A stretch of 64,000 nucleotides of DNA, taken from Catajapyx aquilonaris (Eukaryota). Of the stretch, positions 8,501 through 33,464 are shown piece after piece (position 1 is the stretch's first letter; each line of letters begins with the position of its first letter). The stretch covers positions 62,001-126,000 of the forward strand of contig KZ537971.1 in the NCBI GenBank assembly GCA_000934665.2. Direction: 5' to 3'. Below the pieces are notes generated by a model. The model saw nothing but the letters and a program-made list of their open reading frames with translations, did not search any database and was not told the origin of the DNA. The position numbers and the translations under genes are program-made.

Positions 8501-11421
8501 TGGCCCAGAATGGGACATCGGTCGTAATATGCTACTGATGGACAAGCAAACTCAGAACGGAACTTCTGGAAACAAACGCCATTTTGTGCAGTTTTATTAA
8601 AAACAACTGAAATCTCGTGTTGCCATTACCGTTGTATAACCAGCTGTCTTCCTACCCAGCATGCAATGTAAAGCACTGTACAAACAATGCGCTGTTTAAA
8701 ATAAAAAACTGTTTAGAAGTCAACATAAAAACAAGGACAAAAATGAATAACTGAAATAACGAGCGCCTCATCTTCCATTTTAAGAGTCCCAATCTTCGTA
8801 ACACTATTATTGCTTCTCAGGTCGTATTCGTATATAAACAACAGTTTTTTTTGATACAATTTCTTCTTTCAAATTTTGGATACACGACAGGGAGACCAAC
8901 AATGCCTGATCACTTCGTTCACTCAATCGTTTCTTTATTTGTTTACTTATTTATTTATTTATTCTTAAAACATCCTTCCACCTTCACACTATAGTAGCAA
9001 TCTGAAAGTGGGGGCAACAGTTTGATTGCATTCCCTATCAATCTATCAATTGAGCCATCGGGCCACTGCCGAAAAGGGTAGAAAGGGAGGGGAAACAAAA
9101 ACATCTCCCCTTCCTTGCCCTCCATGGAGATTACAATTATCATAATGCAACAACAAGGTCCTCCCGAGGAACAAAACTCCTGACACTTCCTCCTGGTCGG
9201 ATGTTTTTTTCTCTTCAAAAAAGTTCCATCCTCGCACCACGATTTTATACACACTATAATAGTAGTAATAGTTAGTATTAATAGTAATAACATACCATGT
9301 ATCTGCCTCGGTTCTGAACGTGTGTGAGAAACTATACAGGGCGATGTGCTTCTTAAAAGTGCATACAAACAGCCAACCACGTGTGATAGAATGATAGTCA
9401 GGAAAATATAAGTCAAAACTAGAGATGCCAATCTGGCGCTTTCGAAAAATCTCAACTTTTTTTTCTCTTTCAAATGGAGTCGGATTAAGGAGTACTGTCA
9501 GATATAAAAAGTTTCTAGCCAGCAATTTTTGAGCCCGTAGTTTGTAACCAATTATGACAGTCTTATCGAAAGGCCTGAGATACATAAGCGAACGCACTTG
9601 CGTTCATTGCCAGCATTTTTCCAAGAGCGTAAAAGTCGACGGTTGGAAATCCAAAAGAAAAGTATGGATTGGCATCCCACGTGAAAACAATTTTTCGGCA
9701 CAGCTACGGGGTGGTACTCACTCTAAAAAAGCTTTTGCAATGCCCGGAAAAGCAGGCGAGAATCCCTTGGGCATTGAAATTCACGTTGTTCCTCAGTGAA
9801 AACAAGGGTGGGAAAAGAGTATAGGAAACAAAAACTGGGTGAAATCATACGAGTATCGCTTAATCTGTTTAAAAGGGTGCAGTGCGTGTGTGTATTTTTG
9901 CTCGAATGACGCGCGACCCTTGACTCTCATTGCGGGAGGTGATCTTTTTGTGTGTTTTTCAAAGGGCCTACTGTAGTATACGGACTGCCACACAGAATAA
10001 CACACGCACACATACACACTGGTCCCACATGATGGGGCTCGGAAAAGTGCCTGTCATAAGCGGATGATCCATAATGGCCTGCGGTTGGTGATACGTGTAA
10101 TGAATATTCGTCGACCAGGTTTACTAGTAGTGATCACCCTGTAAGTGTCATGACAGCGTCAACAGCTGAACCAAAATAGTTTTTTTTTGTTAGAAAACAG
10201 AGTAGAAGCGTCAGCACAAATACGGTACTCTCTTCATCGCACTACTATCGTTATCAATGTATCAAAAGTACCCATGATTGCTGGCAGTACGTTTCAGGTG
10301 TAGGAATGAAAGTGTTCGGTCTTACAAAAGAACATCCAGTGAGATCTCTCTTTTTTTTGATTGTTGAGTCTTGCTTGGCTTACATTCTACAAGTAGCGCC
10401 CATTCTACTCTGCGCGCCCATTTTTTGTTTTCACTTTTATCTAAGTTTTCTATTTTGTTAAAAAAATGGAAAAGGGGGCAGGGTGCAAATCGGCGCCCGC
10501 CCCATTTTCTTTTGTGGAGGATGGTAATAAGCTCCTTGTGAGCTGAAGTGATTTACGTTCATCTCTGAAATAGAGAGTGAGAGAGATAGATAGAAAAAAA
10601 AGAGGATAGGTTGGGTCAAAATGGAGCAAGCTTATATGCCATCCTCCGATAACATTTTTTTGGCAAGTAATGAATGATTGCTTTGGCTTCAGTCCTGGAG
10701 AGAGCCAGAGAGTGAGACAGGTTGCACGGACGACAAACAACAGTCCCCCCACCCCCCCTTTTTCCCCCTCACATGAGTTCGACCTGCGGGATAATTGAAT
10801 TTTTTTTCTCCGAACATTTTGATTGTGGTCAACTCTCCTTTTGATCTTCTCTCCTGCGACCGCACTCGAAACGAGATGAAGGCAAAATGCGGGAGAACGG
10901 AAATCCCGTGCAACACAGTTCACTTCCATCTCCCCAGGAAAACCGACCAAAAAGGTGGGTGGGTGGGGTAGGTGGATGACGGGGAAAAAGGGGGGGTTAG
11001 TGGTTCCACCCCACTCACTCATGGGGGTCAACACTGTCCGCTTCATTTCGTCCAAAACGACCCTTTGGGGGTTCCCAACCATCAATCCGGAGTAAAGCTG
11101 ATGCGGGTTCCAAATGGTAGCGGTAAAACGGGGAATTTTGGGCACGAGTTCGCCACTTTCTGACATCATGGCAACCTCCTCCTGTGTGTTCTTTCAACAT
11201 CCCTCAGGTGTGTTTACTTGAAGAAGAAAAAAAACAAGGCCTGAGACACATTCCGCGCACACACGCACTCCAACCCGCACATATTTCATGTTTGTGTGCA
11301 AGTGCACCCCGCAGTATACCAGCGATGTGCCCAATCAACAGTACATTTGAGCTGCCGCCTTGACGCCATCACCGCAAGAGTCCTCTCCCTCCTGCCAGAA
11401 TGGCGGCGGCCACTTGTGCCA

Positions 11422-11475
11422 TCAAACGGTGGTCTCCCTGTCCACCTGGATGTACTCGACGGAGTGTGCGTTGTG
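11422..11475 (-). CDS. Candidate stop-codon readthrough extension HNAHSVEYIQVDRETTV*
   Basis: In frame after UGA-C; 15 of 17 codons end in G/C; ends in class I PDZ ligand ETTV; second UGA at 11424-11422. Confidence 0.6.
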   Translation of the reverse strand, partial: HNAHSVEYIQVDRETTV

Positions 11476-11714
11476 TCAGGAGATGGCCTCTTTGGGGTCG
11501 ATCAGCAGCTCTTCGGTGGGTACCCGTCGCTCCGCTTTTCCGATGCGCCCACGCCCGATCCCGCCGCTGTCCGCGCGGCGTCGCCTCCGACGGCGCCGAC
11601 ATGCCGCGGCTCCCAGGCACACCACCGCCAGAAGACCCGCGCCCGCCCCACCCACATACACGTAGAACAGGGGCAGGAAGAAGCGCGCGCAGTTCGTCTC
11701 TGCCTCGTCGAAAC
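11476..11714 (-). CDS. CUB/LDLa membrane protein, coding exon 8 (end of LDLa, TM helix, polybasic stop-transfer, tail; first stop UGA 11478-11476)
   Basis: Acceptor acgacag|GT at 11715/11714, phase 1. Translation GFDEAETNCARFFLPLFYVYVGGAGAGLLAVVCLGAAAC-RRRRRRRR-ADSGG...LLIDPKEAIS*. Confidence 0.88.
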
Positions 11715-13190
11715 CTGTCGTGGTCGGGGAAAAGGTCAAATGCCATCCATTATCTTTCACACACGCTTGCATGCTTTGCTTTTCCCCATAGACCAAAACC
11801 ATTCGTGACCCACGCCAATACACTTTCATTAACTAGACTAGAATATGACTTACAACTTCATATCTCCTTAAAAATTTAACAACAAAGGCTGTCCTATATC
11901 CACGAAATTCTGCACACTTCTACCAAACCCGGAATTCAAACCTGTCACGGTGGGTTGGAAATCCTCCGCACATGAACGGATTCAGAAGCCATACAGGGCT
12001 TTGTAAGTTATATACTGGTTCTGGAAGCGGCATTTCCGGACCGATTGTGCACATAAAAGCCTTTTCTACTAAGCGCTGCCTGCTATATCCCGCTAGCACT
12101 CTATACCCCCGCTTTCTGCACGCCAATTCTGATAACTTAATTTCGCTAAGCAGTCTTATTGGGTCGGCAGATTTTCAACGTAAACTTCTGGTGGCTTCCA
12201 GCATTATGTTACACATCGCTTCAAATCTCGTGTCGTAAGAAAATCCTATATTACGGCTCATATACCATGCTAGGAAACACGAGAAAATGAATTTTGTGCG
12301 CCACGATACAACTTATGTTGGCAACGCTTAGGTTCTCTTTATCGATCACTGTCCATGTAGGCTACACTGTATGCCGCTAATATAATATTTCAAATAGTCA
12401 GTCCGTCCCATTTACATGCTCCTGGGCAGTATACCGTGGTGTTCGACCTGGCATATTTCCCCGGCAGCTCACACGCTGAGCAGTTGCGGTACAAAATTTT
12501 TGAAACAGAGGTTCAATTTTAGAAATTAAAATGGGCGAAGCCACTCATGCATTAGTGAGCGAGAAACGATTCGGCTCGTATAACATCACACTCGCTCAAT
12601 GGTCCACTTCATATAACCAGTACCACATTAACTCGCTGCACAATGTACCTGCCGTACTAGTACCGAGTCTAATGAATTTACTTTAATTAACTGCTATTTT
12701 GGAAGCTGCCAACATGTCACATTCGCTTACATTTCCTAGAGTGTGTGTATATATAGCCCTCTGAGCTGGATAAAATTATTGTTGTTCCCCCACGCTGCCA
12801 AGTGCAGTGGCTGACACGTTACGGAACATGTGGACTTTCATTATTTTTTCGCTGTCATCACGGTATCCACACAAACATGTTAGTGAACAAAGCGGAATCA
12901 GGGCACCGCGGATCGTAATATCCTTTCGGAATCCTGGGAAACGCGATCTCACTACTATACGCAAAGTCTGACCTCATTTGGAACCTTACGACTGCTATAC
13001 ACTACAGCCTATACGTGCGGCGCAAATCAGGCGTGTCCCAGGAATCTGCAAGGCGGCATGTAATGCACTTTGGGGGTACCCTGATACCGCACCTTAATAA
13101 ACAATAGGGTCGTGTAGATATGGTTTAAAGAGCACACTCATCCAAGTCACTTCTCATAGAGATAACCTGAATGAGAGAGTGTATATTTAC

Positions 13191-14285
13191 CTGAGGGACA
13201 GTGTGGGTGACCATCGCACCAAAGCGCAGAACTAATGCAAGCGTTGAGCTCCGGACAAGCGTAGGGACAATCGAGGGTGATCCCAACCATGCCCGCACTC
13301 ACGTTCCCGGCCATCACTCCAATGTCCTCCGCACTGGACACCGATACCGACCCGGGGCCAGTACCGGTCAGGCCCCGGCTTACTTCCAGCCATCGCACCA
13401 CGTACCGACCGGGCTCCCGTGCGACAAACTCCAGTAGCATACTCGGAGGCCTGCTGCCGATGCTGCTGGACGTGCTCACGATCGGAGTGTACCAGTCGTC
13501 CGAGAAGAGTTCCACCCCGGACACGGCCCCGGGGCCGCTCCCTTCCGGCACGGGCAGAACGGGACACACCAGCCGGAGAAGCGTGTACGGCCTGGTTCCG
13601 GAATACACTAACAGGCGATTCTTGGTCGGGCATCGCATCCCCGCACTCTCGGTGGGTGAAGGGGTCAACCACGTCTCCGTACCGAACAGCCCACCGCCTA
13701 TGGGCGACATCTCCACCCCTGGCAGCCGAAGAAACAGGCTCCTGTTCTGTCTGGCCTCTATCAGCCATGGGAACTTGTCGCAATTGACGTCACTCCCAGG
13801 ACTACGCAGCACGACGTCGCCTCCGTATCCGCGTAGCCGCTGCCGCATGGAACACTCTGGTATCTTGAGAAACTCGTATGTCCCGCGGAAATAAAAGTGG
13901 CTAAAGTCGTCCGAAATGTTCATCCGCAGAACAGTGAATCGTACATGGATGGTCTTGGAGAAGGAGACGAACACAAACCCGGAGGCGTTGGAGCAGAGGC
14001 AGTGCGAGGGGAAGGCCACGTCCCTCCAGGGCATCTCCGTGATCTCCATCCTAGCCTCCAAACCCGGGCTGACCCCGAGGCGAACCTGGCACGTGGGTCG
14101 TCCCGAGTGGGGGTCAGTTTCCGTGGAGCAGGGTCGTCCCCCGAAGGAGACGTTAGCCAGCTGCAGGCGAACGCGCTCGTGGATAGAGGCCTCGAACCGG
14201 TACTCGCAGGTCAGGTTGGGGCTGCCCCCGCGACCGAACAGGAACACGTTTTGCGGGGACCAGAACTCACCACCGCGGCCTCCAC
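13191..14285 (-). CDS. CUB/LDLa membrane protein, coding exon 7 (CUB-like domains and start of juxtamembrane LDLa)
   Basis: 1095 nt, phase 1/1, tttcag|GT and G|gtaaat. Contains GEFWSPQN...CEYRF, and CPYACPELNACISSALWCDGHPHCPSG, which continues as FDE..NC in the next exon. Confidence 0.9.
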
Positions 14286-15252
14286 CTGAAACATGGCAAA
14301 ACAAAAAGCACATTCAATTTTCCGGTATAGCCAGGTGCTTAGTGTATAAGAGAGAACAGTATCTTCCCATGCATGCAAAAACTATTAATATTGTACGCTG
14401 CTGCAGGGTTACTAATTATAGCTTGGTCTATAAGTAAAGCTCATTTTTATAATTTATGCCACCTCCCTGGCTTTTCAAGCAAGGCGATGTTATTCAGAAC
14501 TCCTCCCTCTCCTCTTAAATTGAGCAAAGCTGGCCTTAACGACCACCTCCGGCATATACTCATTAATTTTGGGTTCAGTTCTGCCCATGTCGCACTGTCA
14601 CTTTGACTTACAGGGTAATGACGGTGACAAGGAGACCCGTCCTATCAGCGTGTTCGTATGCTGTATACAGGGCGAGCTTAAACGTGGAGCACTTCCTCTG
14701 GAACTGAGGTTACTTGAGACATTTTAAAACGATATTGTTCCAGTTGATTTTGAAGATTTCTGTTTTATTACAGAAAACCACGTGTACTGTACGTTGAATT
14801 TTTGTCTTAGGCAAGAAGCGCACCGTACGCCTCAGAGGAATGCTAACCTTTAGGAACATCCTGCATGGTGTACTATACACTTACACTGTATCAGTACAAT
14901 CTGGTACAATGCAAAGCAAATGGTATACTCTGCAGTCTATTGTGCACAGTGTGTGCCATGCATACAAAGCAGTAGATTGTTACCAACGCGGGCAAAAGGC
15001 GGGTAAATAGGGCACTTGTATGCTGGCATTGTGTCTAGAAAGAGCCCTTTAATGGTGAACCCTGCTCATAATATAATTACAAGTAACACGCTCAAATTTG
15101 TGTGTCCTTCTCTGAAATGTAAATAGTCCTATAATGTTGCCCAAAATAACGATCAATCGGGTTTTTCACTTATGCATGTATTATTTATCTGTGTCTGATA
15201 TTTCGCATCTTTTGGGTTAGGGATATGATGAGAGTCTTCAAGGAAGAAATTA

Positions 15253-15610: not shown

Positions 15611-15694
15611 TAATGGGAGCAACATGGTCATCATTTTGTGTTTTATACCGGTGGTACCCAGTTCATATCCCAGTTCTTGGGGGGGGGGGGGGGG

Positions 15695-15852
15695 NNNNNN
15701 NNNNNNNNNNNNNNNNNNNNNNNNNNNNNNNNNNNNNNNNNNNNNNNNNNNNNNNNNNNNNNNNNNNNNNNNNNNNNNNNNNNNNNNNNNNNNNNNNNNN
15801 NNNNNNNNNNNNNNNNNNNNNNNNNNNNNNNNNNNNNNNNNNNNNNNNNNNN
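15695..15852. other. Assembly gap (158 N) flanked on both sides by poly-G
   Basis: N run directly visible; G homopolymers at both edges. Confidence 0.98.
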
Positions 15853-15911
15853 GGGGGGGGGGGGAGTTTGTTTTGGCTGGAACTCTTTGCTTTCATTTTA
15901 CTGCGCTCTTT

Positions 15912-16991: not shown

Positions 16992-17508
16992 CAGGGGTGG
17001 AAGCAGCAGCGTGGTCCTTGACGTCACGACTCCGGAACAATCTGTAGCAAGAGCCGGTGGTTCCGGGCATAGGCCTGCCCCAAAGGCGCGTATCTACAAA
17101 CTCATATCGTAGTTCGAAATGCAGTGGGTTGAGAGCCGTTCCGGTCAGAAGCTGCTGCTCCATGGCCAGCTGTGGACCAGTGGACACGTAGCTCTCGGTG
17201 TTTGTGTCGCAAGGTCTGGTGGCACGGGTGGAGTTGTTCAGCAAGGCGTGGTCGCACAGGCGGGGGTATTCGTGGTTGCAGTAGTCTCCGAGAAGGGAAG
17301 CGTCCGAGGGCGGCCCCGGTGTGGACCCACCGGGTGAGGCCTCGGGAGGCCACGTTGTGGACGTTGTGGCGGAAGACAACTCCAGGGACTGGTCCCAAAG
17401 CCGCAACCGAGCAGTGCAATTGCCCTCTGCGGCACCACCTCTCGCGTCGCGTATCACCTCGCGGCTGTAGTACAGGAAGTACACCCACACGATCTCATGG
17501 GGGTGTCC
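16992..17508 (-). CDS. CUB/LDLa membrane protein, coding exon 6
   Basis: 517 nt, phase 0/1, ttctag|GGA and G|gtgagt. GHPHEIVWVYFLYY...LLGDYC...ESYVSTGPQL...FELRYEFVD (CUB-like). Confidence 0.9.
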
Positions 17509-17577
17509 CTAGAAGCATTTCAGAAGAAACACCCAAAATGTAGAACCAGCTGCTGGTCAGACTCCAAGAGAACTCAC

Positions 17578-18027
17578 CTGAAAGAAGTATCGGCAGGTGA
17601 CGTTGGGCGGCACGGTGTGCTGCAGGTTCCGAACCACTCCAGTGCGCGAGTCCTTGGTTCGGATGTGGAAGAGGCAGTGTCGATTGGAAGCGTAGTCTGG
17701 TGTCTCTGAGTCGACTAGCAGGATCTCGACGTTGAGCTCGAAGCCCTTGAGCGGATGCGGGTGGGCCGGGTGCAGCGGGTTCCCGTACGGGGAGGAGTGG
17801 AAGGCCACCAAGATCTCTGCCCCGCTGGAGGTCACCCTGGGGAACCTCGAGCCTCCGCACACTTTGAGCAGCACTGCGTCATCAGTCGTCACTCCGTCGT
17901 ATATGATCACATGGTCCCTTCGTCCCGTGCACTCCTCCCACGCCCTCAGTCCTCCCCCTTCCTCCTCCTGCCCCGAAGAAGAAGGCCCAGCACGTGGACC
18001 CCCCACCAGGCTGCGTTTCAACTGCAC
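17578..18027 (-). CDS. CUB/LDLa membrane protein, coding exon 5
   Basis: 450 nt, phase 0/0, tttcag|GTG and CAG|gtgagt; followed by a 69-nt intron. ECTGRRDHVIIYDG...KVCGG...VTSSGAEILVAFHS...KGFEL is a typical CUB C-terminal half. Confidence 0.92.
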
Positions 18028-19613
18028 CTGAAACAATACGCCAAACCCCCCCGGATATTGCATTTGCGATCTCGCCTTGTGTACTACAATGCATACCATG
18101 CCATATGAATATAATACATCACTTGTTATTATCCCATCAGCTTACCCATCAGGCACCCCGGAGCCTTCCCTATAAATCCAGTGATCCCTACTCGACCAAC
18201 ACGCTTTTTGGGGAAAGGACATTTGGAGAACACATAAAAGCAGCATTAATTACCGCTTCTAACTCCGCCGAATAGTGATTGTCGAGTTTATTGTGGGCTC
18301 GCGGACAGTCGTGGGAAGTGATTCCCACCTGCAGCTGACCACACTGGGTATATTAGGCCCACGATTTTTCCTACTTTCAATATCAACAACGCTACATTCA
18401 CTTAACCTGCTCTCCCGCTTGGGCCCAAAATGCCATCATGTACCGAGATAGAAGGGAAAAGAAAATACAGAGCCGACGATGGCTTCAAGTGGCAAGACAG
18501 TGGTGGGAGGATGAGGAATGGGCTTTCAAAGTCTGAGAAGCCGTCTTCGATCGGACGAAATGTCATCACAGCCCGATGCTTTCGGGCATGTGTTTCTGAA
18601 GTGGGTGGAGCGAGAAAATAAACGCTTCTAGGTTTTATATATATATTTTTTTCTCTCTCGAAAAATGGAAAGAGAGCAAAACCACAGAATTTGCATGGCT
18701 TCCAAAAATGTCAAAGCCAAGCCCAGCAGCGTAAGCATGAATATTTCAAACGTTATGGTGTGTTTCAGGAGAGGTACATTCCTTTGAGGGCTTACGCTAA
18801 GCCTCAGAGCATCCTTTATTCATCTGCAGGCTGAGGGTGGAATTTTGCACGCGCAAAATTCATTACCCATGCTGTAATCAAGCTCGTGCCAGGACTGGAA
18901 TTACAGAAATCACGACCTCCTTTTTTTGCACCGCATAAACGACAAACTGCATTCCAATCGGCCAATTAGCTACCTATAGCACAGGACGAGCGAGCACAGG
19001 CGCCTCCATTGTGTTGTTTTGTGTCCGGTTTGTTACCACAGCATAAACTTGCTAGTTTACTGGGTAATAAAATGAATACAAGCCCGGGGTCAAATGATTG
19101 GTGGACAGACAACACTGAGTGAGACCGCACAGCACGGGCTGCAAGCCTCCACTGCAAACATTCGCAAAAACCTGATAACTGACTGCGCAGTCCATCAGAA
19201 AAGCGTACCTTTGTGCATCCACGTGCGCCGCGACTGATAAAAATAAAATAAACGAGATTTCCCACCCGAGCTTATCAACCGTGTTTGGACAATGTCAACT
19301 ATTAGAGAAGCGCAATAATAAAAATTAGCGGACGGGATAAGGTTAAAAAAAAGGGGGAGGGCTGGAATGAGTGGTGGCGGTGGGGGCAGAGAAAACAAAG
19401 AGTTGAGGCTTCCGGGCCTGAAATTACAACGCGCAACGACGCAACTTGGATAATTCATCATTCCGGCGGCAACTCATTTAATATAAAGCCGGCAATCAAG
19501 CGCAATGAGTTTAATTAGGCCTTTTATAGCCGCAGCCGTCGCCTCCAACACCGTATTTTCCTGGCTGACGGGGCTATCCAACTCGCATTTAGTGGGTACT
19601 GGATGGGACTGAC

Positions 19614-19836
19614 CTTGTGCTCCTGTTCCTGAACGACGGTGACCAAGGCGTGCTTGCAGGCTGGCACGTCCCTTTGCCTGACTGTATAGTAGCACGTCGC
19701 ATTTCGAGGGTACAGTCCAGGATAGTTGGGTGACTGGAGACGGCAGCGTCTCCGGTGACATCCGTCCAGAACTCGGCTGCAATATGTCCCAGGAACCAAC
19801 TCGCCTCTCTCGGTGGGATTCCCTGCCAGACCGTAC
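19614..19836 (-). CDS. CUB/LDLa membrane protein, coding exon 4
   Basis: 223 nt, phase 2/0, cttcag|G and AAG|gtcagt. Contains the CUB signature LQSPNYPGLYPRNATCYY. Confidence 0.92.
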
Positions 19837-22800
19837 CTGAAGAGACAGGTACACGTACAGGTTATACGATGTAGAATTCTTTTTTTAAGGGGGCTGGTTG
19901 GCCCCTGGGACGCGGACAAGGGAGCCCGGGCAGTAAGGGCTGGAAGGAAATTAAAAGAAAACAAGGGCGGACTGGCCCCAGCTGCCTGATTGTTTATTCT
20001 GGAGGATCATTTTCTCTGCCAGCAGGGATCAAAGACTAGAAGGAAATTGCTGTGCCTATCGACTTATATCTGCTACGGGTTAAAGAAATTGCGTCGATTG
20101 AGATGCGCTCTGGCGGACGGCCCATTATGGATGACTGATGATGCACAATGGGGCATGCAAGTTTGGTAGGTGGCTTGATTACGTGTATTTCTCAACAATA
20201 ATTAAGCGATGGATTATGCATAAAGCCCTTAATGAGGGATCAATTGCGTAATTATTCAAAGTTGCGTACTTAGCATGATACTAATGAGTTTTTTGTTATT
20301 TTTCTGAAGTCAAACCATGACAGACTTCATAGGTTGCTTCGCACCATCAAAGAAGCCGCATGTGGTATAGCAGACTTTGAAAATTGCTAAGTCTAATGTC
20401 GGATTTTCAGCGGATAGGGAACCAGAGCCCTGAACCGGGATTATCCTTTTAAAAATTTATCAACATGCAAAAAATCTCACGAGTGTATAAAATGGCATTT
20501 AAACATCCTTCTGTCTGCCTGGATTGTTTTAAAAATACACACGCCCCCAGGTAATACATAAACGGGGCTTACTTCAACAGGCAAAGTTGCTGTTTGCCGG
20601 GCACATATTTTATGAGATTCACCCCGGCTTGACTATCACGGCTGTGACAGACTAGATAGGCGTTCCAGTGAGAACAGTTCTGTGACATTCTGTCACTTTT
20701 GCAATTTACTCCTGCATAAATAGCATGCACCGCATAGCAACAGTCTGATATCTTCTAAGTGATTCCGTGAACTTCGTGACAAGCGAATTTAAATAAATCA
20801 TTAATAGAGGCGCAACTATTATTATTTTTATTTGCCTGAAATCTGAGGTGCTTCCCTTATTGAGGAAGAACTTCAAAAACTTTAAAACATGCGACCTATT
20901 TCATTTAGGTGGAGAAATTAAAGCTATTCAATTATATAGGCAGCATTGCTATTTTGGATGCACAAAAATCTGATACTGTACAGTATATTGCATTACATTC
21001 ATTTGGCGTTCTGTCATACCCGTTTGATATTTGCAGGTGTTTGAACGTATATTTTTAGTTCCATTATTATTAATAACGTAATGCAGTCATAGTTACTTTG
21101 TTACATTACATAGCTCCAACCACAAATAATGCACTGCAAAATAACATTAGATTGACATGGTTTCATTTCAATTAATGTCTTGAAAGTAAACAATTAGTTC
21201 TACATAATAAAGCGACTCGAATTATTATTTTGATTGGTCAGTTTCATTTTAACTCAGATTGTTCATTGCCATCGAAATTGAATAAAGAAGAACTAGTTAA
21301 CTCAACAACCATAATAATTATCATGTTGACGTTGTGCCGGTAAGAACATCAAAGCATCTTGTTGCATAATAATACCCTTAATTAGCAGAGTTTTGACCAC
21401 TAATTTGTGGCGATGTGACCTACTTTGCCTCCACCCGCTCCACTGCGTATGACACTGGTTATTACCCATCGCGCAAGGCCGCAACGGAACAAACTCTGCC
21501 TGTATTGTCGAGTAATAAATTACAACTTTCGATTAGGCTTTCAGTAAAAGAAAACAACTACACTCTACCGTGGCATCCCAAACTTTCCCATCTATAGATA
21601 TTAGGGGGCGACTCTTTCAAGGGAACAATATAATGAATTCCCCCAACGTCATTAGTACTCACTATACAAGTAACCTAATACTTTTAACAGTACTCTTTTA
21701 TTTCAGACCCTGAACCTCAGGCAACAGGAATTCGCACTCGTTCTAGTGTTATTCCAGTGAAATTATACTGTACGCGTCACTCCTCCATTATTACAATTTG
21801 TGCAGGATACGATTCCGTCTCTATGGACCACTTAGAATTATCTCCAGGGACGGATCCAACCGGCGGGCATCCCCTGATTAGCGTAACATCCCGTATTACA
21901 CTGCGGGATCGCCTCGATGCACAGAATTATCCTGACTGTTCAGAGCCACCCTGCGTGTCTCTTTTGTGCACCGGTATCGTCTAACTCGCAGGATACTCCT
22001 CTTTGCAGGGATGATATTGATGCGTACTGGATTTTTCATGAGTGATGTAGCCCGGCAGGAGAGCAACCAGCAGCTCCCAGTGTGTGGGAGCCCGGAAAAT
22101 GAGGTACATGGGAAGTGGGATGGAATACACTGTATGCACAGGAGTGGGTGGGATGTGCTGGGGAGAGGTTAAAGGAAAGAGAATTGCTGCTGGCATGGGA
22201 AAACTATATGAAGAGACTCTCTCGGCTCAGGGCTTGCATACAATTACGCAATACCGGGCGAGTGATTTCCTTTCAATGCCAGGTCTGACACTGTAATATG
22301 TGGAAATATTCTCAACCACTGCAATGTATTGTATGGCATGCAGTTCTAAACCAATAAAGACGGACGTGTGCTGCTGTCGAATTGTTTGTCGGTAATCACC
22401 TTGAGTAGCCTTTCTTTGTCCTCTAAAGTGCTTTCGGGGTCTATGCTCAAATGAATGTGTCTGTAAAATTTCCTGCACACAATGCAAGCCTCCTTCCAGT
22501 TACATTATCACAATAATAAGCAGCGTAATGAAATGTACTGCAGCTGAAGTGCTGTTTTTAATTTGCTTATTAGTATCCCTCCCTTTGCGAATCATGTGAC
22601 AGAGAAAAGAGGTCAATGGCAAAGAGAAGGAAAATATAAGAGTTTAGATTCTTCCATGAAGAAACTTGCCGCTAACTGTAATAGGCCGGCCTTACGCGAC
22701 CCAAGACTAAATGCGACGGCAAAATTGAAAAAGTTATACTTTATGTTTCAGATGTCGATCCATTGCTCACGGGTACCTCCATTTTTGCCTTTGTATTTGA

Positions 22801-23293
22801 CTCTCGACATAAAATATTTTAAATATGCCTGGTCGGGTTAATTTTTCCATGGCAAAATAGTGAATAGGTGCGGCAGAAACTAATATTCTTCTACCTATTC
22901 TTTCAAGCAACTGAACATATGAATCACAATTCCATGACGTGATGGACGATCCTGTTTCACACTCATTGCCAGTCGTCCTTTCGCATCACCTAACAAGCCT
23001 TCAAGGAATCTGGTTCAATGAACGTAACTCAATATTCCGCCAAAATATGGCTGACAGAACCTTCCGGTAGTTCATCAAAAATGTTAATTTGGCCATATTT
23101 CTTCTCAAACTTGGAAATATCCCACAAATATGGCGAACAGCTGGCGACTCCCCCAGTTTCTAGTATGAAACGGGGGTCCACCAGGCAAACTAATGTACAA
23201 CACGGTGATATAGCCCTGAAGGGAGTCGAACAGGAAAAGGGCAAGAGTCGCGGTGAGCGGGAGCCATTGATCGCAGTGCTTGGTTGCACTAAC

Positions 23294-23565
23294 CTGGCCA
23301 CAGCGTCTCCTTTAGCCACAAACTTGTACCGCAGGCGAAACTCGAAGGCGTTGGCAGGGACTCCTTCGGGAGGCCATCTGAATACCTTCAGGGTGACGGT
23401 GACTGTGGATGTCTCGCTGTAATAGACAGCGTATCCCGAGGCCACCCCGCACCAGAAGCCCCCAGTAACTGGCCGGTTGATCTCCGACAGGGTCATGTAC
23501 CCGTCAGGACAGCCGTCCAGGATGGACGACACGTACCGGCCCACACTGAACGCGTCGAACATCAG
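23294..23565 (-). CDS. CUB/LDLa membrane protein, coding exon 3
   Basis: 272 nt, phase 0/2, ccccag|CTG and AG|gttagt. LMFDAFSVG...GCPDGYMTLSE...GFWCG...YYSETSTVTV...FEFRLRYKF (CUB-like). Confidence 0.92.
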
Positions 23566-26245
23566 CTGGGGAAGAGAAAGAGAGGACCGCAGGTAAGAAT
23601 TCATTCCCTTGGCATTTTCATTTCACGACGCAGATGGAAGATATGTCAAAAACACTGGGCTGTTGGATGCAGGCAGGAAGAAGATTTAAATATGTCTGCA
23701 TCAGTGTCCTCCGTTCGGAAGAAGGATGAGAGGCAAATCCTGCGCATAATGAACATGTCTGCAAATGCCCTGGCAGATGCGCACGGGATATATGCTGTAC
23801 CTCCGTATATACGATAGGCGGTGTAGGCCGTATAGCTGGGACCAGGCAAAATAGACGAAGGCTATCTTTCTCGGAGGGATGGATCCGCAGACGAGATACC
23901 TACTTGCGGCCAAAGGCGACTTAAAACCGCGAGGCTTCGCCCTTCTTTTTTTTTTTTTACGGCGCTGTCTTTATTATAAGCCTGCAGGGTTGGAACTCTA
24001 AAAACCCGCTGAAGGACGGAGTTTTTCTTCCTTCGCAAAGAGATCAGAAATATACGCGCTATGGCCAAGGATCTCATTCCATCTCGGCCCTTTTCCTCCG
24101 CTTCTGCATGCCTGGTCTCGTTTGCCCTACTGACACTTCAAGTACACTCGTGTCCATTGACCACATTACAGTCGGTCCTTGAATATAGCCTACTCTATCC
24201 AGCTTCCTTTTCGGACTTATACGGTATCAAATAAGCTGCATGTAGTCTGATGTGACTAACACGTCTGTGGGTGAGACGTCCAAGGTAGCTTGCAAGGTTT
24301 TCCAAACTCATCGGGGTACTAGCCCCAAGCGAAATGACGGCATGGATTTCAAGAAGGGGCAGATGAAGAAAGTTAAAAGAAAAAACCATTACAAACTATG
24401 CTGTTAACTAAGGCAAGTCCATTTGTTGAATTTAAATATTTTTACGACAATTCTAGAGGCGTGAAAAGTCTTAAATGAAGTTTGAAATTGCATTTTTATA
24501 TCGCAATTAATATTCACGATGGCGTTTGGAATCTTTCCGGTGTTGGTGAAGCACAGTATATGACATTTCGATGGAAAGTGGATATGTAACCCACCATCTA
24601 CTTGCCACATAATTATCCTGCAATATGATCTTTTAGAATTGACAATGCGTGTTATTCCATGCAGCAATAAGCGCTCCCTGGCAAATCAAAACAACGCAAC
24701 ACATTACTATGTTCATTTATGCCAAATTTAACAAAACACTCATTTATAGCTGAACGAATTACTATAAACGGTATTACTAGGTACTAGCCTAGCAGTACAC
24801 AGACTCCTTCATGAGATAGATTGGGGTTTTAATGCTATTTTTCACTGGGCCATTTTCCCGGATATGAGAAAAATAGATCGACATTTTAATTAATTAGGCT
24901 TCTCCAGGACACGCGATATATTGTGCGCACGATAGATGGGACTTTCATTTCAATTGATGAGGCTTATTTGCACATATCATAGTTACGAATGTGCGTAACC
25001 CGACATACCTAATGAATCATGCAACAGTCTAAACTATAGCCAAATGAGGGGATCTCGCTCTGCGCTGCTATAGCTCGTGGCTTCAAGTTTTAGATATTAC
25101 TGCTAGTTTTGTTGTCAATAACCAGGGTAATTTCTCCTCAGTTCGAAATAACATAATTGTAATATTTCATGTTCGGCAGGTATCTCCATTTTATTCGTAA
25201 TTTCAGATAAGGTTTAAGTAAGAACTTGGAATGCTTAATGTGCTAGACATGGATAAATAACCGGCGACTGGAGTACGGCCCACCTCCTGATTCACGAGTC
25301 GCCAAGTTTTGTGATTCTTCCTCCCAAAATTAATGCAGAAACTAAAAGTTCAGAAAATACATAAAATCCGATCTGCGCGGCATTGTGAGTTTAATGCCCA
25401 CCAAGTTAAGCCCGAATACAAAAGATTCTGGCCGCATAAAAAAATATTAACGATCAGTAGGCCCTTTTTATCCCAGCACATCATGATGTTGACGGGTGAT
25501 CAACTTAGGGCCTATAATCTCCTTGCCTAAACACACTATCCGTCAAACAAGCCTAGAAAAGACGTTAATGCGAGTCAAATGTAGGCTCGGGGGCGGAAAA
25601 AGCGATCCCGTGAAATTGTGGCGCCTAACTTAACAAGTGAAGTGACAAATCCCAGCATGACACTCAAGCCCCGCGGAAAGGGATTAGAAACACGACAAGG
25701 TTTGTCGCAATGCAAAAATCGATAGAGCAGAATTTCTTCCTCCTAGTAGTCAAGCTACTTGCTCCCCTTCACCACTCAACCCCCACCCACTCAAAGCCCC
25801 CACCCCACCCACTCTACCCACATTCTGGCTTGATTCTCAATGGGGGCAAACTTTCCATCAAGTCCCCGCCCTATCTCTGCTAAGTACATAAATGATCCCG
25901 CCTTCACTAAGTTGCTAGCAAGTTCCTGCACGGAAAGAGTCGGTGCAAGACGACTCCAGACCGAACCTGTACCGCCTGCTCTCACGGTTAATCCTTCTCC
26001 AGATTCGCAGCCATCAACCCTCTTTCGGTACCCCCCTCTTCCTCCAACTAGCTCTCCGCTAAACACTCCCGGCAAACAACCCCACTTTGCCACTAATTCT
26101 GCCCCCCCCATTTTTTTCCCACGGACCGACGCACTGTCGTAAAGCTACAAGAAGCATTATTAGCAACGAGAGAGAACTTTGCGGTCGCCTACCGCCACCT
26201 CCAGCACGCTTCCAATGTGGACATGCTCGTATTCTGTCGTCCCAA

Positions 26246-26387: not shown

Positions 26388-28683
26388 ATGGTACGGCAGT
26401 ATTGGTCACTGGAAGTGCCATCTACAACCCCACCAGCATGAAAAACTGGTTTCATCCTGAAAGTCCGCTAACCTATGTGCCTCTCTTGCCACACTTATTG
26501 CCGTCATCTCAGGGGATATCCTTGCCTTCAATATTACCAGCTCCCTCAACATGGGTAGGCTGATTATTTGGCTTGGGTGGGGATTTGGACCCCTAGCAAA
26601 ACGGGTAAGGGATATGGTGCGAGGGATATGACGGCCTTATCCTGATACCTTCCCCACAACAAATAACCCAGGGTAAGAAAATTCGGTGCGGAAAGGCCAT
26701 CCTTTGGGCCGCTATCTCGCACTCAGCCCGAGCCGCACTTTATTTTAGGCCGGAATGGGAGGAATCCCGAGCAGGCGGCTGGAAATGTAGATGAAAGGAG
26801 AAAAGCCCTCTTGGGGGAAGGCGGATGGAAAGGGGAGAGAGAGGGGGGTTTGTAGATAAGGGGTGAAATGTTAGGAGGTGGAAATGGGCCTACTTGGTCT
26901 AAAGTTTTCCCAGTAATAAAGCCGCGCCTAAAGGTTGTTTCCACCCAGTTTCTGGGCACAGTTTTGGTGTGGGCGGATGGGTGGGGCAGGTCGGTGGTAA
27001 AAACCCCGGTTCTCCCACGGTTATTACGCTAACTATGGCTTCCCATCCGACGGGAAAGGGCGGAAAAGGCCGTGGAAATCTTTCCCTGCCGCGTGGAATT
27101 GTTTCCGCCATCGTTTGGCAACCAATTTCCTAGTCACGCTGACAGTCGATTGTCGCTCAGCTGCGATTGCCTTCACCGAATTAGCACCCTCTACCTTTTG
27201 AACCCCTTGTACACGGACCCCGTCAAAAAATACTCATTACTAGGAGACTTCAGGAAGGAAAACGGGGTAGCCAGCCACCCGATTACTATTTCATGAAATT
27301 AACCTTTCTAAAGAGAGACCGGGACGTTATAGTCGAGTAAAAGAGCGTTGAATTATACAAGAGGAATCGAGCTTTTACTTTGCTGAAAGCCTTTTGTCCT
27401 CTCCCTCCATCCTTCCCGTTCTACCCTCTCCCTCCTTCCTACCCTCTCCCCCCCCTTTGCCTCACTCACATCCTCCAAAGAGCGTCGTCGCTTCTTTTTG
27501 TTTGCTTCCCTTCCAATTCCAGAAAGGTCCATTTACACAAGGCCGTAAGGAAAAATACTTCTAGCAAGAAGGAAGGTGGGAAGGGACACAGGATCCGCAT
27601 GGGAAAAGACTACTATTGGGAATGAAATTAAAATTTCATTCTCAGTTCATTCTCGGGAGGAGCTTCGACGCGATTCAATTCCAGAAATACAAGAAGTGCC
27701 TGATGAAAGGAGCGGATTCACAGGTCTTCAAATCTGCTCATTTTCTACCGGTACATTCATTCTCACGTGTATCCTTGCTTCACAAAAACCTTTGTTCAAA
27801 TCTCTTTGGAATACCTTATCCTGCAGAAAAAGAATGCTGAATCAACTTAAGATCTGAAATGCAGAACGATAGGGGGCCACATTTTGGTCGAAATTGAACT
27901 GGTCATTGTGTAATATGTTCCATGATACTTTATGGTGGACAGGTCGGCGCGGAGTTCGTCTAGAAAAATTACTGTCGTCTACAAAAATGTTAAAGGAATA
28001 ATGAACACTTTACAACCTAAGAAAGTGTTATCAGAGGTAACTTTGATGTCGGAAGTACACTATAAACAGAAAATCAGCTTAACCGCAAATAGATCATCCT
28101 TGCCTATAGTACCCCAAAGCTGCCTCAAAGCTATCCACCAGGGGCAGGAGATAAAGTCACATCCGACAGTACTTCACAGAATATTAATGTTGTTCTGCAC
28201 GATATAGAGCAAGACGAAAGATTTCGCGTACATTGTAAAATTATGCAGAGGCAACAGAATTCCTAAAAGCATGTTATGGTGATCAGATATCCTCCCAAAT
28301 CCAGGCATTACCAGTGGCTGAAATATGTAGCACTGTCCTTGTCACATTAATTACTTAAAGTAGACCTACGTGAAATATGCTCCCAGACCACATAATGACT
28401 GGGAGCTTAAAACCAGTTCAAAGACTAATTTATTTAGAAGCTGCTGTAATTTTGCACCCTTTAAAAGAGGGAAATTCACGGGCTCTTTGTGGGTGGCAAC
28501 CATGTGATCAATGTAGGTCTCCAATGTGAATGTGCAATAAAAATGTCTCGCTTTCCCTGCCAAACTCCCGCTTGAATTGGCTTTGATTCTACCAGGCGCT
28601 TTTGACACCATACAATGCGCCTCTGTAAACCTCGTTTAACCCTTGAACACTAGCGAAAGCAAAAAAAAGGGTGTTTCATTTAC

Positions 28684-28820
28684 CTGCACGAGGTCACCAA
28701 AGGCATCCCCTCCGGCCATGAAGGTGAGGTGACACACAAAAGGCAGGTGGTCATCTCTGGGCCTCTGCACCTCCAATTGGTAGGTCCTCTCCGCCTCCCC
28801 GTAGTATGTCCGGTTGCAGG
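28684..28820 (-). CDS. CUB/LDLa membrane protein, coding exon 2
   Basis: 137 nt, phase 1/0, ggcag|CC and CAG|gtaaat. ACNRTYYGEAERTYQLEVQRPRDDHLPFVCHLTFMAGGDAFGDLVQ starts the first CUB-like domain. Confidence 0.88.
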
Positions 28821-31329
28821 CTGCCGGCAAATGAGGCGAAACGGATGAGGGAACATGATAATTATTCCGAGGCTGCCTTTGACCCTCTCTCCCCATCTCT
28901 CCCATGCCCCAGCCTCCCATCCCACTTAGTGGGGCCCAACTCCCCGATGGTCCAACGCTCCGGCGCCTTTTGCCCCGACATAATGTAGCAGTGGGGCGCC
29001 AATTAGAGGCCTGGCTGAGTTTTAATTTATCGGGGGCCGCGTCCAACCTCATTCGCCCCCATCATTTTCCTTCTCTTTCCACCCAAGCCCCATGCACGCA
29101 CCATGGACATCCTCTGGCTCACACAAAAAATGGCCTAGGGCCTCACTCTCCACCTGACTTCTTCCCATGCTTGTGGCTTCCATTCTACTCTCTGGCCGCC
29201 AGCTTGCCTCTCACTCACTAATGAAAACTTTCATTTCAGGATGCACGTCAATTAGTTTGGCCCGCCAACAAAAATGTACACCTCCCTGCTTTTTTTTTGG
29301 GGGGGGGGGGCGACTGTACATATGGCAAAGGTCTCTACTGTTGCTAACCTAGCTCGAAGCCACAAAACCGGAAAGGAGGATTCATGATTATTGTGGAAAC
29401 CATATTATGCAGCATAAAAGCTCGTGCCAGGGAAAGAAGCTGTACATGTTCATAAACCAAGATGAGTTCGAGAAATTGAGAGTTACATTACACTGAAATG
29501 CCACCAAAAGAGCACTCGACAGTAGCAGATGATATCCAATGGCAATGCACATTATAGGTGGCTATACTGTAGCTGGTACACAGACTGGAGTTGACATATT
29601 GAAGATTGGTTCTGCCAATATATGCTGGTGCTAATTATACGCTAAAACACCAAAATCCACATTTTGTATCATTGCTGGATTCTGAAATCAGATTATGTTG
29701 TAATGAATTTCTAAAAGTAATGAAAAAATTCTTAGCCAAAAGGTTATTGGACGTCATTCCAAAAACGAGCAGTACATGTCTAATAAGGTTTTATAATATG
29801 ACTTCAATATACTAACGTGTAATTGGTTACGATGAGGGCAACAGTGATGGGGATTATTATTACTACCACTACTATTATTAATATTATTAACAACATTATT
29901 ACTGCCGTTATTAATAATATTATTACTACTGTAATTCATTATTATCATTATTCCAGAAGCGTAAGTGGATTCTATAATTAAATTTACATTGCCTGCATCT
30001 ACATACCAGGCACACTGTAATTAGAGTACATCACTGGTTGCCATGAAAATGTGCAATTATGTACAGTTGCAGGACGAACTACAGGCCTGCCACAATTACT
30101 GAACTTCCAACTCACCATGCAGCTACTGCAATGCATAAAGCAAGATATGCAAATGCGAGAAATTATTAAAATTTCTGGCTGAAAAGCCATTCTGCAATAA
30201 TGACCTTCCTCCGATATTGGTGCTCAGATGTTTAAATCTGGATACCGGTGTTCCAAGAGGCAGTAAAGTTAAGACTCGCGAGATAATTAGCGCGTTGGCC
30301 CCCATTCGCAGCAGGCACAAGTATGCAGGCCATGGGGAGGTGAAGATATTTCCGGACACTAGTTTTCAGAAAGAGCTTTCCCAAGTGGTTCTTTTTGTAG
30401 ACTGGTACTCGAGACTTTAAAGAGTCGAGTGATTACATGCTTAGAAGGCTGAAGCCAAGAGGAGCCCAAAGTTGGGCTAAAACCGTTCCCATAGGACCTG
30501 TCTCAAGCTTCCAAAGCTACGTTCCAGCCTCCCATTGATCCCAGCCGCAAAATGCTGTAGTAAACAAGACCCAGTTATATAGTAAACAGCTCCGGAAAAT
30601 ATTTACTACCTCCACACGGGCTTCTTTTATTCCCCATTTAACCCCCCAGATGAAAGAAGCACAGGCTCACGGCCACCGCCATATAAAAAAAGCACTCATT
30701 TTCTCCCAACTTTGTGGAAACCGGGAGCGGTTCTGCCTCTTGGAGATAGGAAGATGTAAGATGGATCACGCCACCAAGAATGGCTCAGCTTTAGAGTTCA
30801 TAAACGATCATCCGTCTCAAAAGAGCAAAGCACAATTTTCTGCTTCTCGCATATTTACGCCCATACCGCTTCCAGGATGATTACGACCTGGTGAAGCCAA
30901 TCAGTTCGCAGTCGACTCTGATGTCGACAGCACTATTAAATGGAAGTTCAAAATGTAATAAAAGGTATAAACTGTGGATCTGTCATCCGAACAATACCCG
31001 ATCACACGAGTCCAATTTTTAAAACGGTTTACACGCACTAATATAGTTTCTGCACATTAATACTGTTATAACACGCATGTACGTGGGAGAAGATTAAAAT
31101 CAATACCAGCTGCAGAATGGCCTTTAAAATAGCCAGAAACAACCCATCCGTACTTGTTAAATTGCCTGGTATAGGTTTTTTTTTGCCTAATAATATTTTC
31201 CTCTGCGGAATCGTATACCTGCATCAAGTGTCTCGTAACAGGAATGCCAATCAAATCTGACGCTTTTCTGAACTTTGGTGTGCTGTACGTATGGATTCTC
31301 ACCTCAATTGTACTGTGTATTACCACGTA

Positions 31330-31457
31330 TTACAGTGTACTGTATACTGCATACAGTATACAGTATACTGCATACAGTATACAGTATACTGCATACAGTA
31401 TACAGTATACTGCATACAGTATACAGTATACAGTATACTGCATACAGTATACAGTAT
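31330..31457. repeat. Minisatellite of 7-mers (TACAGTA/TACTGCA) arranged in a 21-bp higher-order unit
   Basis: TACTGCA-TACAGTA-TACAGTA repeated about 5 times. Confidence 0.9.
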
Positions 31458-33253: not shown

Positions 33254-33464
33254 CAGTGCAGTGCCTTGGCTCGTCGGAGGCGTCCCCGCAGTCGTCGTGG
33301 GCGTCGCAAAACTGGTCGGCTCTTATGCAGTGGCCGTTTCGACATGGGTACTCTGAGATCCGGCAGGCCAGACCCCATGCCCCTGGACACAGGTAGCCCA
33401 GAAGTGCAACCAGCACAGCCAGCACCACCACCACCCGCACCCTCGCCCAAGCCGCTCCCAACAT
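33254..33464 (-). CDS. CUB/LDLa membrane protein, coding exon 1 (signal peptide and N-terminal LDLa); exon acceptor at 33477
   Basis: MLGAAWARVRVVVVLAVLVALLGYLCPGAWGLA (signal-peptide-like) then CRISEYPCRNGHCIRADQFCDAHDDCGDASDEPRHC (six-Cys LDLa with DCxDxSDE). Donor G|gttagt is phase 1 and matches exon 2. The joined CDS is 3144 nt, 1047 aa plus stop. Confidence 0.88.

Follow-up and report, generated by a model that had tools for sequence, protein, structure and literature searches.

Readthrough of stop codons is already known in insects, from genes in which a coding signature continues behind a conserved stop codon and in which TGA as the stop and C as the base following it (+4) are enriched (Jungreis et al. 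2016, PMC5100048; Dunn et al. 2013, PMC3840789). In PMC5100048, the candidates classed as ancient, which there means common to Drosophila and Anopheles, have TGA in 74–76% and +4 C in 55–63% of the cases. One entry of its Supplemental Data S1, the Anopheles gene AGAP006444, is a readthrough candidate with TGA-C, an extension of 18 codons, TGA as the second stop and a flag for RNA structure from RNAz; it is placed in the 'Comparison' group with Stop Orthologous = No, i.e. it is not counted as ancient (PMC5100048). The present work concerns another gene of the AGAP006444 family, located in a stretch of 64,000 nucleotides (nt) of Catajapyx aquilonaris (assembly GCA_000934665.2, contig KZ537971.1, positions 62,001 to 126,000), the whole of which is called the window hereafter. 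Its last exon, on the minus strand, ends with TGA-C and is followed in frame by an extension of 17 codons, which ends with the residues ETTV before a second TGA. Comparison with related loci shows that in several paralogue clades the extension evolves like a protein-coding sequence, and that the TGA-C before it is strictly conserved.

The likeness of the window gene to AGAP006444 lies in the common family, with CUB, DUF7805, LDLa and transmembrane parts, and in the TGA-C, and it extends to a dipteran-like locus with a tail matching that of AGAP006444 (L042, see below). The difference is that AGAP006444 belongs to another paralogue group, with a tail ending ...KEVIC instead of the ...LLIDPKEAIS of the window. 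As to the class of ancient candidates, the signature found here spans paralogue clades and wider hexapod orders.

Other described systems are comparable in single respects. Readthrough at a short UGA context exposes peroxisomal targeting signals (PMC4207609); there, too, passage through a leaky UGA places a short targeting motif at the C-terminus, and the two isoforms go to different places; however, those are type 1 peroxisomal targeting signals on soluble metabolic enzymes, as against a candidate PDZ-type ligand on a membrane protein. Neto1, of 533 amino acids (aa) with the order CUB-CUB-LDLa-transmembrane helix, binds PSD-95 through its C-terminal class I ligand TRV (PMC2652390), as stated in the preliminary description of this locus. 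It is a single-pass CUB/LDLa membrane protein with a class I PDZ ligand at the C-terminus, tethered to a synaptic scaffold, but its ligand is constitutive, with no stop before it, and its two CUB and one LDLa domains differ from the N-terminal LDLa, CUB and DUF7805 domains of the family studied here, the proteins of which have about 1000 aa. Finally, deletion of the terminal ETTV of GPR125/ADGRA3 abolishes co-precipitation with Dlg1 and basolateral localisation (PMC9539791); the terminal tetrapeptide is identical to that of the window extension, while GPR125 is an unrelated vertebrate seven-pass receptor without recoding.

The two stop codons and the extension between them

Around the first stop, the minus strand of the window reads GAG GCC ATC TCC TGA CAC AAC GCA CAC TCC GTC GAG TAC ATC CAG GTG GAC AGG GAG ACC ACC GTT TGA. 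The canonical open reading frame (ORF) ends ...KEAIS in the last exon, followed by the first TGA, presumed leaky, at 11476..11478 (minus strand), with C at 11475 (+4) and A at 11474. The extension of 17 codons, HNAHSVEYIQVDRETTV, occupies 11425..11475 (minus strand) and is delimited as such by codon statistics, conservation and the proportions of nonsynonymous and synonymous differences (pN and pS). The second TGA, considered the true terminator, is at 11422..11424 (minus strand) with T at +4, and conservation stops directly 3′ of it. These positions are exactly those given in the preliminary description for both stops and for the extension. The terminal ETTV, directly before the second TGA, has the class I PDZ-ligand pattern, with T at −2 and V at the C-terminal end; the normal C-terminus, ...EAIS, does not fit that pattern, as had been anticipated.

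The base calls were compared with contig sets assembled from DNA sequencing runs. Three of them (X1, X2 and X4) show no difference to the window over 10900-12000, while a fourth (X5) reaches only 10900-11044. X1, X2 and X4 probably share the source sample with the assembly, so that their agreement rules out consensus error only.

The codon statistics of the extension were studied on their own. G or C ends 15 of its 17 codons, the count reported earlier, and the G+C content by codon position is 0.59/0.29/0.88. A frame of this length without stops is not unusual at this place, since no stop occurs in 65% of the 971 windows of 51 nt taken from the 1 kb that follows; however, none of the 971 attains either 15/17 G/C-ending codons or the gap between third- and second-position G+C content of the extension. 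With a codon table built from 1,070 codons of the gene's own exons, the in-frame score of the extension was −64.2, compared with −71.7 and −73.8 for the two alternative frames, and the extension outscored 83% of 934 genuine coding windows. The same score was attained by only 0.05% of 1,988 stop-free non-coding windows with G+C content of at least 0.52, and by 2 of 20,000 stop-free shuffles (p = 1e-4); the in-frame advantage was attained by 2.0% of those non-coding windows versus 13.4% of the coding windows. The codon usage of the extension is thus like that of real exons and beyond chance, while the open frame alone is not.

These data bear on the simplest alternative, namely that the extension has no function and is a frame left open by chance in a GC-rich 3′ untranslated region (UTR), or else the remnant of a recent nonsense mutation or of a sequencing error. 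The stop-free character of 65% of the downstream windows and the GC-richness of the proximal 3′ UTR favour it. Nevertheless, the base call is the same in the three contig sets derived from reads, the orthologues end at the same stop, and the TGA-C with its extension is conserved under purifying selection in 42 of the 46 related loci (next sections). An artefact from a single contaminant is ruled out by the 24 distinct sequences among those loci and by their synonymous differences. The probability left to this alternative is practically negligible.

Conservation of TGA-C and of the extension in related loci

Forty-six loci encoding relatives of the window protein, designated with L numbers, were obtained from metagenome contigs by a pattern scan with a family alignment of 30 sequences. 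All their 249,349 nt were then scanned in six frames for T[TS]V or STV immediately preceding a stop. Of the 47 occurrences, 5 were background, while the other 42, distributed over 42 of the 46 loci, lay directly behind the family C-terminal tail. What follows the tail in those 42 loci is TGA-C and then an in-frame extension that ends with ETTV, VTTV or ESTV. The 46 loci collapse to 24 distinct sequences, i.e. 25 including that of the window, and the counts that follow are based on these 25.

All 25 have TGA as the first stop and C at +4, and 23 of them have A at +5. The first codon of the extension is CAA in 11 cases, CAG in 5, CAC in 4, CAT in 3, and CGA and CCG in one each, while the second stop varies (TGA 17, TAA 6, TAG 2). 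The last three residues are T-T-V in 24 sequences and S-T-V in one, giving T at −2 and V at 0 in 25/25; the residue at −4 is E in 18 and V in 7. The extensions have 10–84 codons and are in frame throughout. At the terminal T-T-V, threonine is spelled ACA, ACC, ACG or ACT and valine GTC, GTG or GTT; because the codons used for these residues are varied synonyms, the selection appears to act on the peptide and not on the RNA. The conserved UGA-C and the conserved terminal T-x-V expected in the preliminary description were thus found, with no frameshift behind the first stop and no sense codon in its place in any orthologue.

The window extension HNAHSVEYIQVDRETTV aligns with QPAQSVEFIHVDRETTV (L004-L008), QQPPGFVEYIHVDRETTV (L001), HRLHSMELIEIDRETTV (L002) and QNDQRRAQSVEYIRVEHETTV (L010), which gives a conserved core SVE[YF]I.VDRETTV. 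In the dipteran-like locus L042 the corresponding region reads ...EKEVIC*QNDNSVRYVEIDRVTTV*, where the asterisks are stops. Protein libraries gave further cases. A HMMER search with the last exon read through (TGA translated as tryptophan, W) matched 10 library proteins, 8 of which align to the last residue of the query. Nine of the ten (P0074-P0078 and P0080-P0083) have W at both stop positions flanking the conserved extension, e.g. ...KEVIC-W-HSDNSVRYVEVDRVTTV-W-..., and run on into translated 3′ UTR. They look like gene calls made on eukaryotic contigs under a code with TGA as tryptophan, a class of artefacts that preserves the sequence behind TGA stops, and can be taken as further cases of TGA ... 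TTV TGA. A word search of short proteins with the read-through last exon gave no match.

Selection on the extension

Three sets of close loci, taken from groups A, C and B, were aligned with MAFFT, and the extension was compared to the sequence behind the second stop. In group A (5 loci) there were 2 substitutions in the 51 sites of the extension, versus 26 substitutions plus 6 gap columns in 153 positions after the second stop. The corresponding figures were 5 substitutions of 51 sites versus 31 substitutions and 22 gap columns of 158 in group C (7 loci), and 1 substitution of 30 sites versus 34 substitutions and 87 gap columns of 183 in group B (7 loci). All eight substitutions within the extensions were at third positions and synonymous, no gap column occurred there, and both stops were invariant within the three sets.

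At larger distances, the last 13 codons of the extension were compared among 12 representatives (66 pairs), with mean pS 0.72 and mean pN 0.31. For the window against two of its nearest group-A loci, pS was 0.89 and pN 0.07 (L001), and pS 0.78 and pN 0.07 (L004), i.e. pN/pS 0.08–0.09. As controls, the first 13 codons after the second stop gave pN/pS 0.96 in the 15 stop-free pairs, and the last 13 codons of the canonical ORF, ungapped, gave 0.97, a value that mixes paralogues without alignment and shows only that the canonical tail is less well conserved at its end than the extension is. The bias towards synonymous substitution between the two stops, proposed earlier as a sign of coding function, is therefore present both among close loci and between the window and its nearest group-A relatives.

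The first stop in annotated orthologues

In the window's group, the annotated orthologues have their C-terminus at the corresponding position, for instance ...PRRVPTEELLLDPSGSTGSS (Bacillus rossius), ...PRRVPTEELLLDPGSTTSS (Schistocerca), ...PRRAPTEETLLGAAS (Hymenoptera) and ...LLTGPRLLDPGLNS (Coleoptera). The orthologue ends ...RRVPTEELLLDPSGSTGSS, ...PTEETLLGAAS and ...LLDPGLNS are to be compared to ...RRVPTEELLIDPKEAIS in the window, while other paralogue groups end ...DGKDSLC or ...GKEVIC. Among further named family members, the annotated end is ...EKDSW in decapods, ...GKESEC in Strigamia and ...DSPHVK in spiders. Because the annotated orthologues end at the same place, the TGA of the window is not a recent nonsense mutation. 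Among the 73 plus 120 family proteins listed, no annotated one runs into an ETTV tail, and all stop at the first TGA. The earlier claim that standard annotation would miss the extension thus holds for the annotated proteins; on the other hand, AGAP006444 is already in a published list of candidates.

The residue preceding the leaky stop is conserved as well, being serine in clades A (that of the window) and D and cysteine in clades B and C (clades as defined below); the last sense codon is TCC in 13 sequences, TGC in 6, TGT in 4, and TCT and AGC in one each. Across insects, the canonical ends ...GKDSLC and ...GKEVIC hardly vary. A function of the C-terminus of the short isoform, or an effect of the −1 codon on readthrough, are candidate reasons for the conservation of the pre-stop residue.

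The orthologues of the Drosophila group, that of CG32432, show two alternative C-termini (P0084-P0098 versus P0099-P0102). One is ...DEKEVIC, at the leaky stop; the other, reached by alternative splicing, is ...VVETKI or ...VETKA, which also fits a C-terminal [ST]-x-hydrophobic pattern. In flies, splicing may thus be a second route to a PDZ-type end, besides readthrough, and the alternative fly C-termini may explain that the published table has no stop-orthologous Drosophila transcript.

The existence of alternative 3′ ends in the family, with Drosophila isoforms ending ...DEKEVIC or ...DEKEKKPVVETKI, would also be favourable to the idea that the first stop is removed by alternative splicing and not by recoding. 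In the window, however, the extension follows the stop without interruption, and there is no usable GT donor between the transmembrane helix and the stop, and an intron removing the stop alone would be far below the minimal intron size. Moreover, splicing leaves unexplained that the stop is TGA in 25/25 sequences and never TAA or TAG. It is hardly credible that splicing accounts for the conserved extension.

Probable mechanism of passage through the first stop

On the evidence, ribosomal readthrough at UGA-CA is the best mechanism, because selenocysteine insertion, RNA editing, splicing and chance all weigh less; it also agrees with the enrichment of TGA and +4 C in the conserved readthrough genes of insects (PMC5100048). 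According to this mechanism, most ribosomes would terminate at the UGA in 11478-11476, giving the protein that ends ...KEAIS, and a fraction of them would decode the UGA with a near-cognate tRNA, aided by the invariant UGA-CA context. The amino acids usually inserted at readthrough UGA codons are tryptophan, cysteine and arginine. The ribosomes reading through would add 17 codons and stop at the second UGA, giving an isoform with an ETTV C-terminus. A fixed fraction of the protein would then be tethered to, or trafficked by, a scaffold of the Dlg/PSD-95 type, and the rest would not. From the sequence comparisons we infer, as a probable reading, both the readthrough of the UGA and the class I PDZ-binding character of the C-terminus of the second isoform so formed.

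Several observations weigh against this reading. Many of the metagenome loci are near-duplicates, as indicated by the reduction from 46 to 24, and their taxa were inferred only from the nearest named proteins. Four of the 46 loci are without the signature. Two of these are on short contigs: that of L013 carries the same gene as the signature-bearing L014, and that of L045 has 1.3 kb. A third, L044, ends in TAA. The fourth, L024, with no TTV, ends ...NSLDSY followed by TGA-G and 3 more codons; the named proteins closest to it (32–34% identity) belong to a pseudoscorpion and a spider, and according to this locus the readthrough module may be absent from chelicerates. In addition, a conserved stimulatory RNA structure was not found: RNAalifold predicted 0 pairs for 10 diverse family sequences around the stop, and the fold of the window in this region is not unusual (z = −1.29). 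Without a conserved structure of this kind, the readthrough rate could be low. The 'RNA Structure' flag of AGAP006444 was likewise not reproduced family-wide.

The structure predictions are also relevant to the possibility that A-to-I editing converts the UGA to UGG (tryptophan), the stop being removed and the extension translated from edited transcripts only. Editing would explain a conserved TGA with a conserved coding extension equally well, and the published AGAP006444 entry has the 'RNA Structure' flag. Against it are the 0 consensus pairs in the 10 sequences and the z value of the window fold. The A to be edited would follow G, which is the least favoured 5′ neighbour for ADAR, and the invariant +4 C and the +5 A (23/25) fit better with selection on the termination context. 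We consider editing quite improbable.

An in-frame TGA conserved together with the coding sequence behind it is also a signature of selenoproteins, and in two paralogue groups a cysteine precedes the TGA (...DSLC, ...EVIC), resembling a cysteine-selenocysteine pair. It could therefore be thought that the UGA encodes selenocysteine and that the long form is a selenoprotein. However, no match resembling a selenocysteine insertion sequence (SECIS) with E <= 10 was found in 9000-12000 of the window, where Rfam gave only three sub-threshold, unrelated matches, and no Rfam family reached its gathering score in 20 representative loci (115,594 nt), some contigs of which may hold only part of the 3′ UTR. 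The residue before the TGA is serine in the window's group, and the signature is kept in loci 92–99% identical to ant proteins (L001 and L033); Hymenoptera are reported to have lost selenoproteins. Selenocysteine thus seems very improbable, even more so than editing.

Possible function of the C-terminal motif

Given readthrough, there is a somewhat better than even prospect that a scaffold of the Dlg/PSD-95 type binds the long isoform or directs its traffic, as judged from the C-terminal sequence. The pattern [S/T]-x-V-COOH with E at −3 is a preferred class I ligand of Dlg/PSD-95. The description of ETTV as a class I motif is in agreement with the precedent of GPR125, the identical terminal sequence of which binds Dlg1 (PMC9539791).

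The main functional rival concerns the nature of the signal: readthrough would be real, but the terminal [EV]TTV would be another type of C-terminal signal, such as a degron or, as the foremost possibility, a terminal-valine signal for sorting or export from the endoplasmic reticulum. C-terminal valine export signals do exist in type I membrane proteins. PDZ binding is here based on a pattern match, and the strictly conserved part is the terminal T-T-V, with either E (18 sequences) or V (7 sequences) at −4, which gives some room to this rival. On the other side, the identical ETTV not only binds Dlg1 but is also needed for the basolateral targeting of GPR125 (PMC9539791), and export and PDZ functions can coexist. 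A signal other than a PDZ ligand is unlikely, though clearly less so than the alternatives to ribosomal readthrough.

Gene structure and family identity

From its sequence, the gene appears to encode a type I membrane protein of the arthropod CG32432/DUF7805 family, with an N-terminal LDLa, CUB domains, DUF7805, a juxtamembrane LDLa-like module, one transmembrane helix and a short tail. Searches with tblastn, in which five orthologues were the queries, gave ordered exons on the minus strand from 33368 down to 11494, with 6–7 ordered high-scoring segment pairs (HSPs) spanning residues 8-936 of the orthologue P0012. All the exons described next are on the minus strand. The most upstream, 33255..33368, matches the N-terminal LDLa module of the orthologues (queries P0002, P0012, P0003 and P0024, with Pfam Ldl_recept_a at the matching residues of P0012 and P0002). 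It is followed by a coding exon at 28666..28845, with HSPs for 4/5 queries, and by two exons of the CUB region at 23290..23589 (5/5 queries, 52–62% identity) and 19545..19901 (5/5 queries). The next coding block, 17032..18030, known from HSPs and from the ORF list, comprises two ORFs in the same frame (17557-18141 and 16888-17508) split by an in-frame stop; the interval 17509-17559 containing this stop is spanned by one HSP and is probably a short intron starting ...TTC CAG/GTG AGC (the slash marks the splice site).

The penultimate exon, 13191..14277, supported by Pfam and tblastn, encodes DUF7805 and the first part of the juxtamembrane LDLa-like module, and ends at the donor TCA G/gtaaat. 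DUF7805 (PF25090, E = 5.1e-34) was recognized in the 388-aa ORF 13147-14313. The canonical part of the last exon, 11479..11714, starts at the acceptor cgacag/GT and contains the end of the LDLa-like module, the transmembrane helix, a run of eight arginines and the tail ...RRVPTEELLIDPKEAIS. The junction of both exons reads CPSGFDEA, completing the LDLa-like module. The transmembrane helix, a hydrophobic stretch of 28 residues (11682-11599, minus strand), and the stop-transfer run of eight arginines (11598-11575, minus strand) were located by eye; their succession fits a type I topology by the positive-inside rule, also read by eye. The putative cytoplasmic tail derived from this topology has 33 residues up to its end in RRVPTEELLIDPKEAIS, and aligns with orthologue tails ...RRVPTEELLLDP..SS.

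In the search for longer proteins, 73 family members were obtained, all from arthropods, the best one being from Anabrus simplex with 45% identity. The named members have an N-terminal LDLa, CUB and DUF7805 according to Pfam, and the orthologues have about 950–1050 aa. With these features the protein is not of the Neto type (CUB-CUB-LDLa), to which the preliminary description had drawn a parallel, the likeness shown between Neto1 and the CG32432 family being limited to the types of domains. A protein atlas gave only arthropod CUB/DUF7805 clusters, with no link outside them. Among the dipteran members is the orthologue group of Anopheles AGAP006444, a gene that is paired with D. melanogaster CG32432 in Supplemental Data S1 of PMC5100048. 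According to a preprint (10.1101/2025.03.17.643622), CG32432 is enriched in hygrosensory neurons and would be the orthologue of the Caenorhabditis elegans receptor auxiliary protein SOL-1.

Two features of the gene introns can be mentioned: a run of N at approximately 15690-15880, which is an assembly gap appearing as runs of X in the ORF list and as a dip in G+C content, and a tandem repeat at 31331-31457 with a 7/21-nt period (TACAGTA, about 18 copies). Nine other long ORFs of the window (at least 160 aa), including 10450-11193 (minus strand), a frame of 247 aa in the region of the 3′ UTR, gave no Pfam match, and a second gene was not recognised within the 64 kb.

Breadth and age of the signature

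Signature-bearing loci were found close to named proteins of Hymenoptera, Diptera, Blattodea, Ephemeroptera and Collembola. The nearest named proteins are from Acromyrmex for L001 (99% identity), Cataglyphis for L033 (92%), Anastrepha for L042 (94%), Zootermopsis and Cryptotermes for L025 (89%), Blattella for L023 (84%), Cloeon for L043 (81%), Ephemera for L003 (66%) and Orchesella for L015 and L017 (about 50%).

The relationships among the family members were approached with a quick maximum-likelihood tree of 49 rows, from which the near-duplicate loci and L014 and L024 (HSPs under 120 aa) were left out; branch support is given as the Shimodaira-Hasegawa-like approximate likelihood ratio test (SH-aLRT). 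The window falls in clade A (13 rows, SH-aLRT 99) together with L001, L002, L004, L010 and L016. Signature-bearing loci are also present in clade B (L003 and L018, SH-aLRT 99), in a springtail clade (L015 and L017, SH-aLRT 100) and in a deep clade D (L009, L011, L012, L020 and L046, SH-aLRT 100), which is outside all the other rows at the midpoint root. In the tree, clade C is formed by named proteins only, and the clade C loci bear the signature as judged by their tails. Copies of A, B and C occur within single species, e.g. Copidosoma (P0023, P0053 and P0176). The simplest reading of this distribution, in a tree that is midpoint-rooted, is that the recoding arose before the paralogues split and before the hexapods radiated.

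The extensions of clade D (L009, L011, L012, L020-L022 and L046) are peculiar in being long, with 24–84 codons, and low-complexity, acidic or proline-rich. Close relatives within this clade differ by in-frame indels (81, 82 and 84 codons), and all end D-L-E-T-T-V, with a drifting linker in front of six fixed terminal residues.

Novelty and significance

In the literature searched, CG32432 was found in 3 papers, DUF7805 in none and AGAP006444 in no main text, and none of 9 papers dealing with both readthrough and a PDZ-binding motif concerned, by its title, a PDZ ligand made by readthrough. The term 'PDZ' was not found in the main text of PMC5100048 or in its one searchable supplementary file, and the main text of a 2026 preprint on Drosophila readthrough (PMC13278127) contains neither PDZ nor CG32432. 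As far as searched, with the supplements of Dunn et al. 2013 and of PMC13278127 lying outside the search, the paralogue of the window, the conservation across the family and the hexapods, and the reading of the extension as a PDZ ligand are unpublished. The case of the window is much older and wider than what is published: a candidate that had appeared as clade-specific is in fact common to paralogues and extends across hexapods.

Readthrough is predicted for hundreds of insect genes, but very few of their extensions have an evident function. In the present case, the function-bearing part would be the four terminal residues, with a variable linker and an invariant leaky stop context, which would allow clean genetic tests in a family, CG32432/DUF7805, almost unstudied publicly. 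A wider proposal, which we put forward tentatively and at somewhat less than even probability, is that the UGA-CA stop and the terminal [EV]TTV form a single ancient module that predates the paralogue clades. This module would have been kept for several hundred million years in every sampled clade (A, B, C, springtail-like and D), with its linker drifting between 10 and 84 codons, and its role would be to fix, at the ribosome, the ratio between scaffold-bound and free copies of a CUB auxiliary subunit of receptors of the ionotropic glutamate type or of the ionotropic receptor (IR) type. If this is true, the event would be among the oldest and most cleanly interpretable cases of cellular readthrough known.

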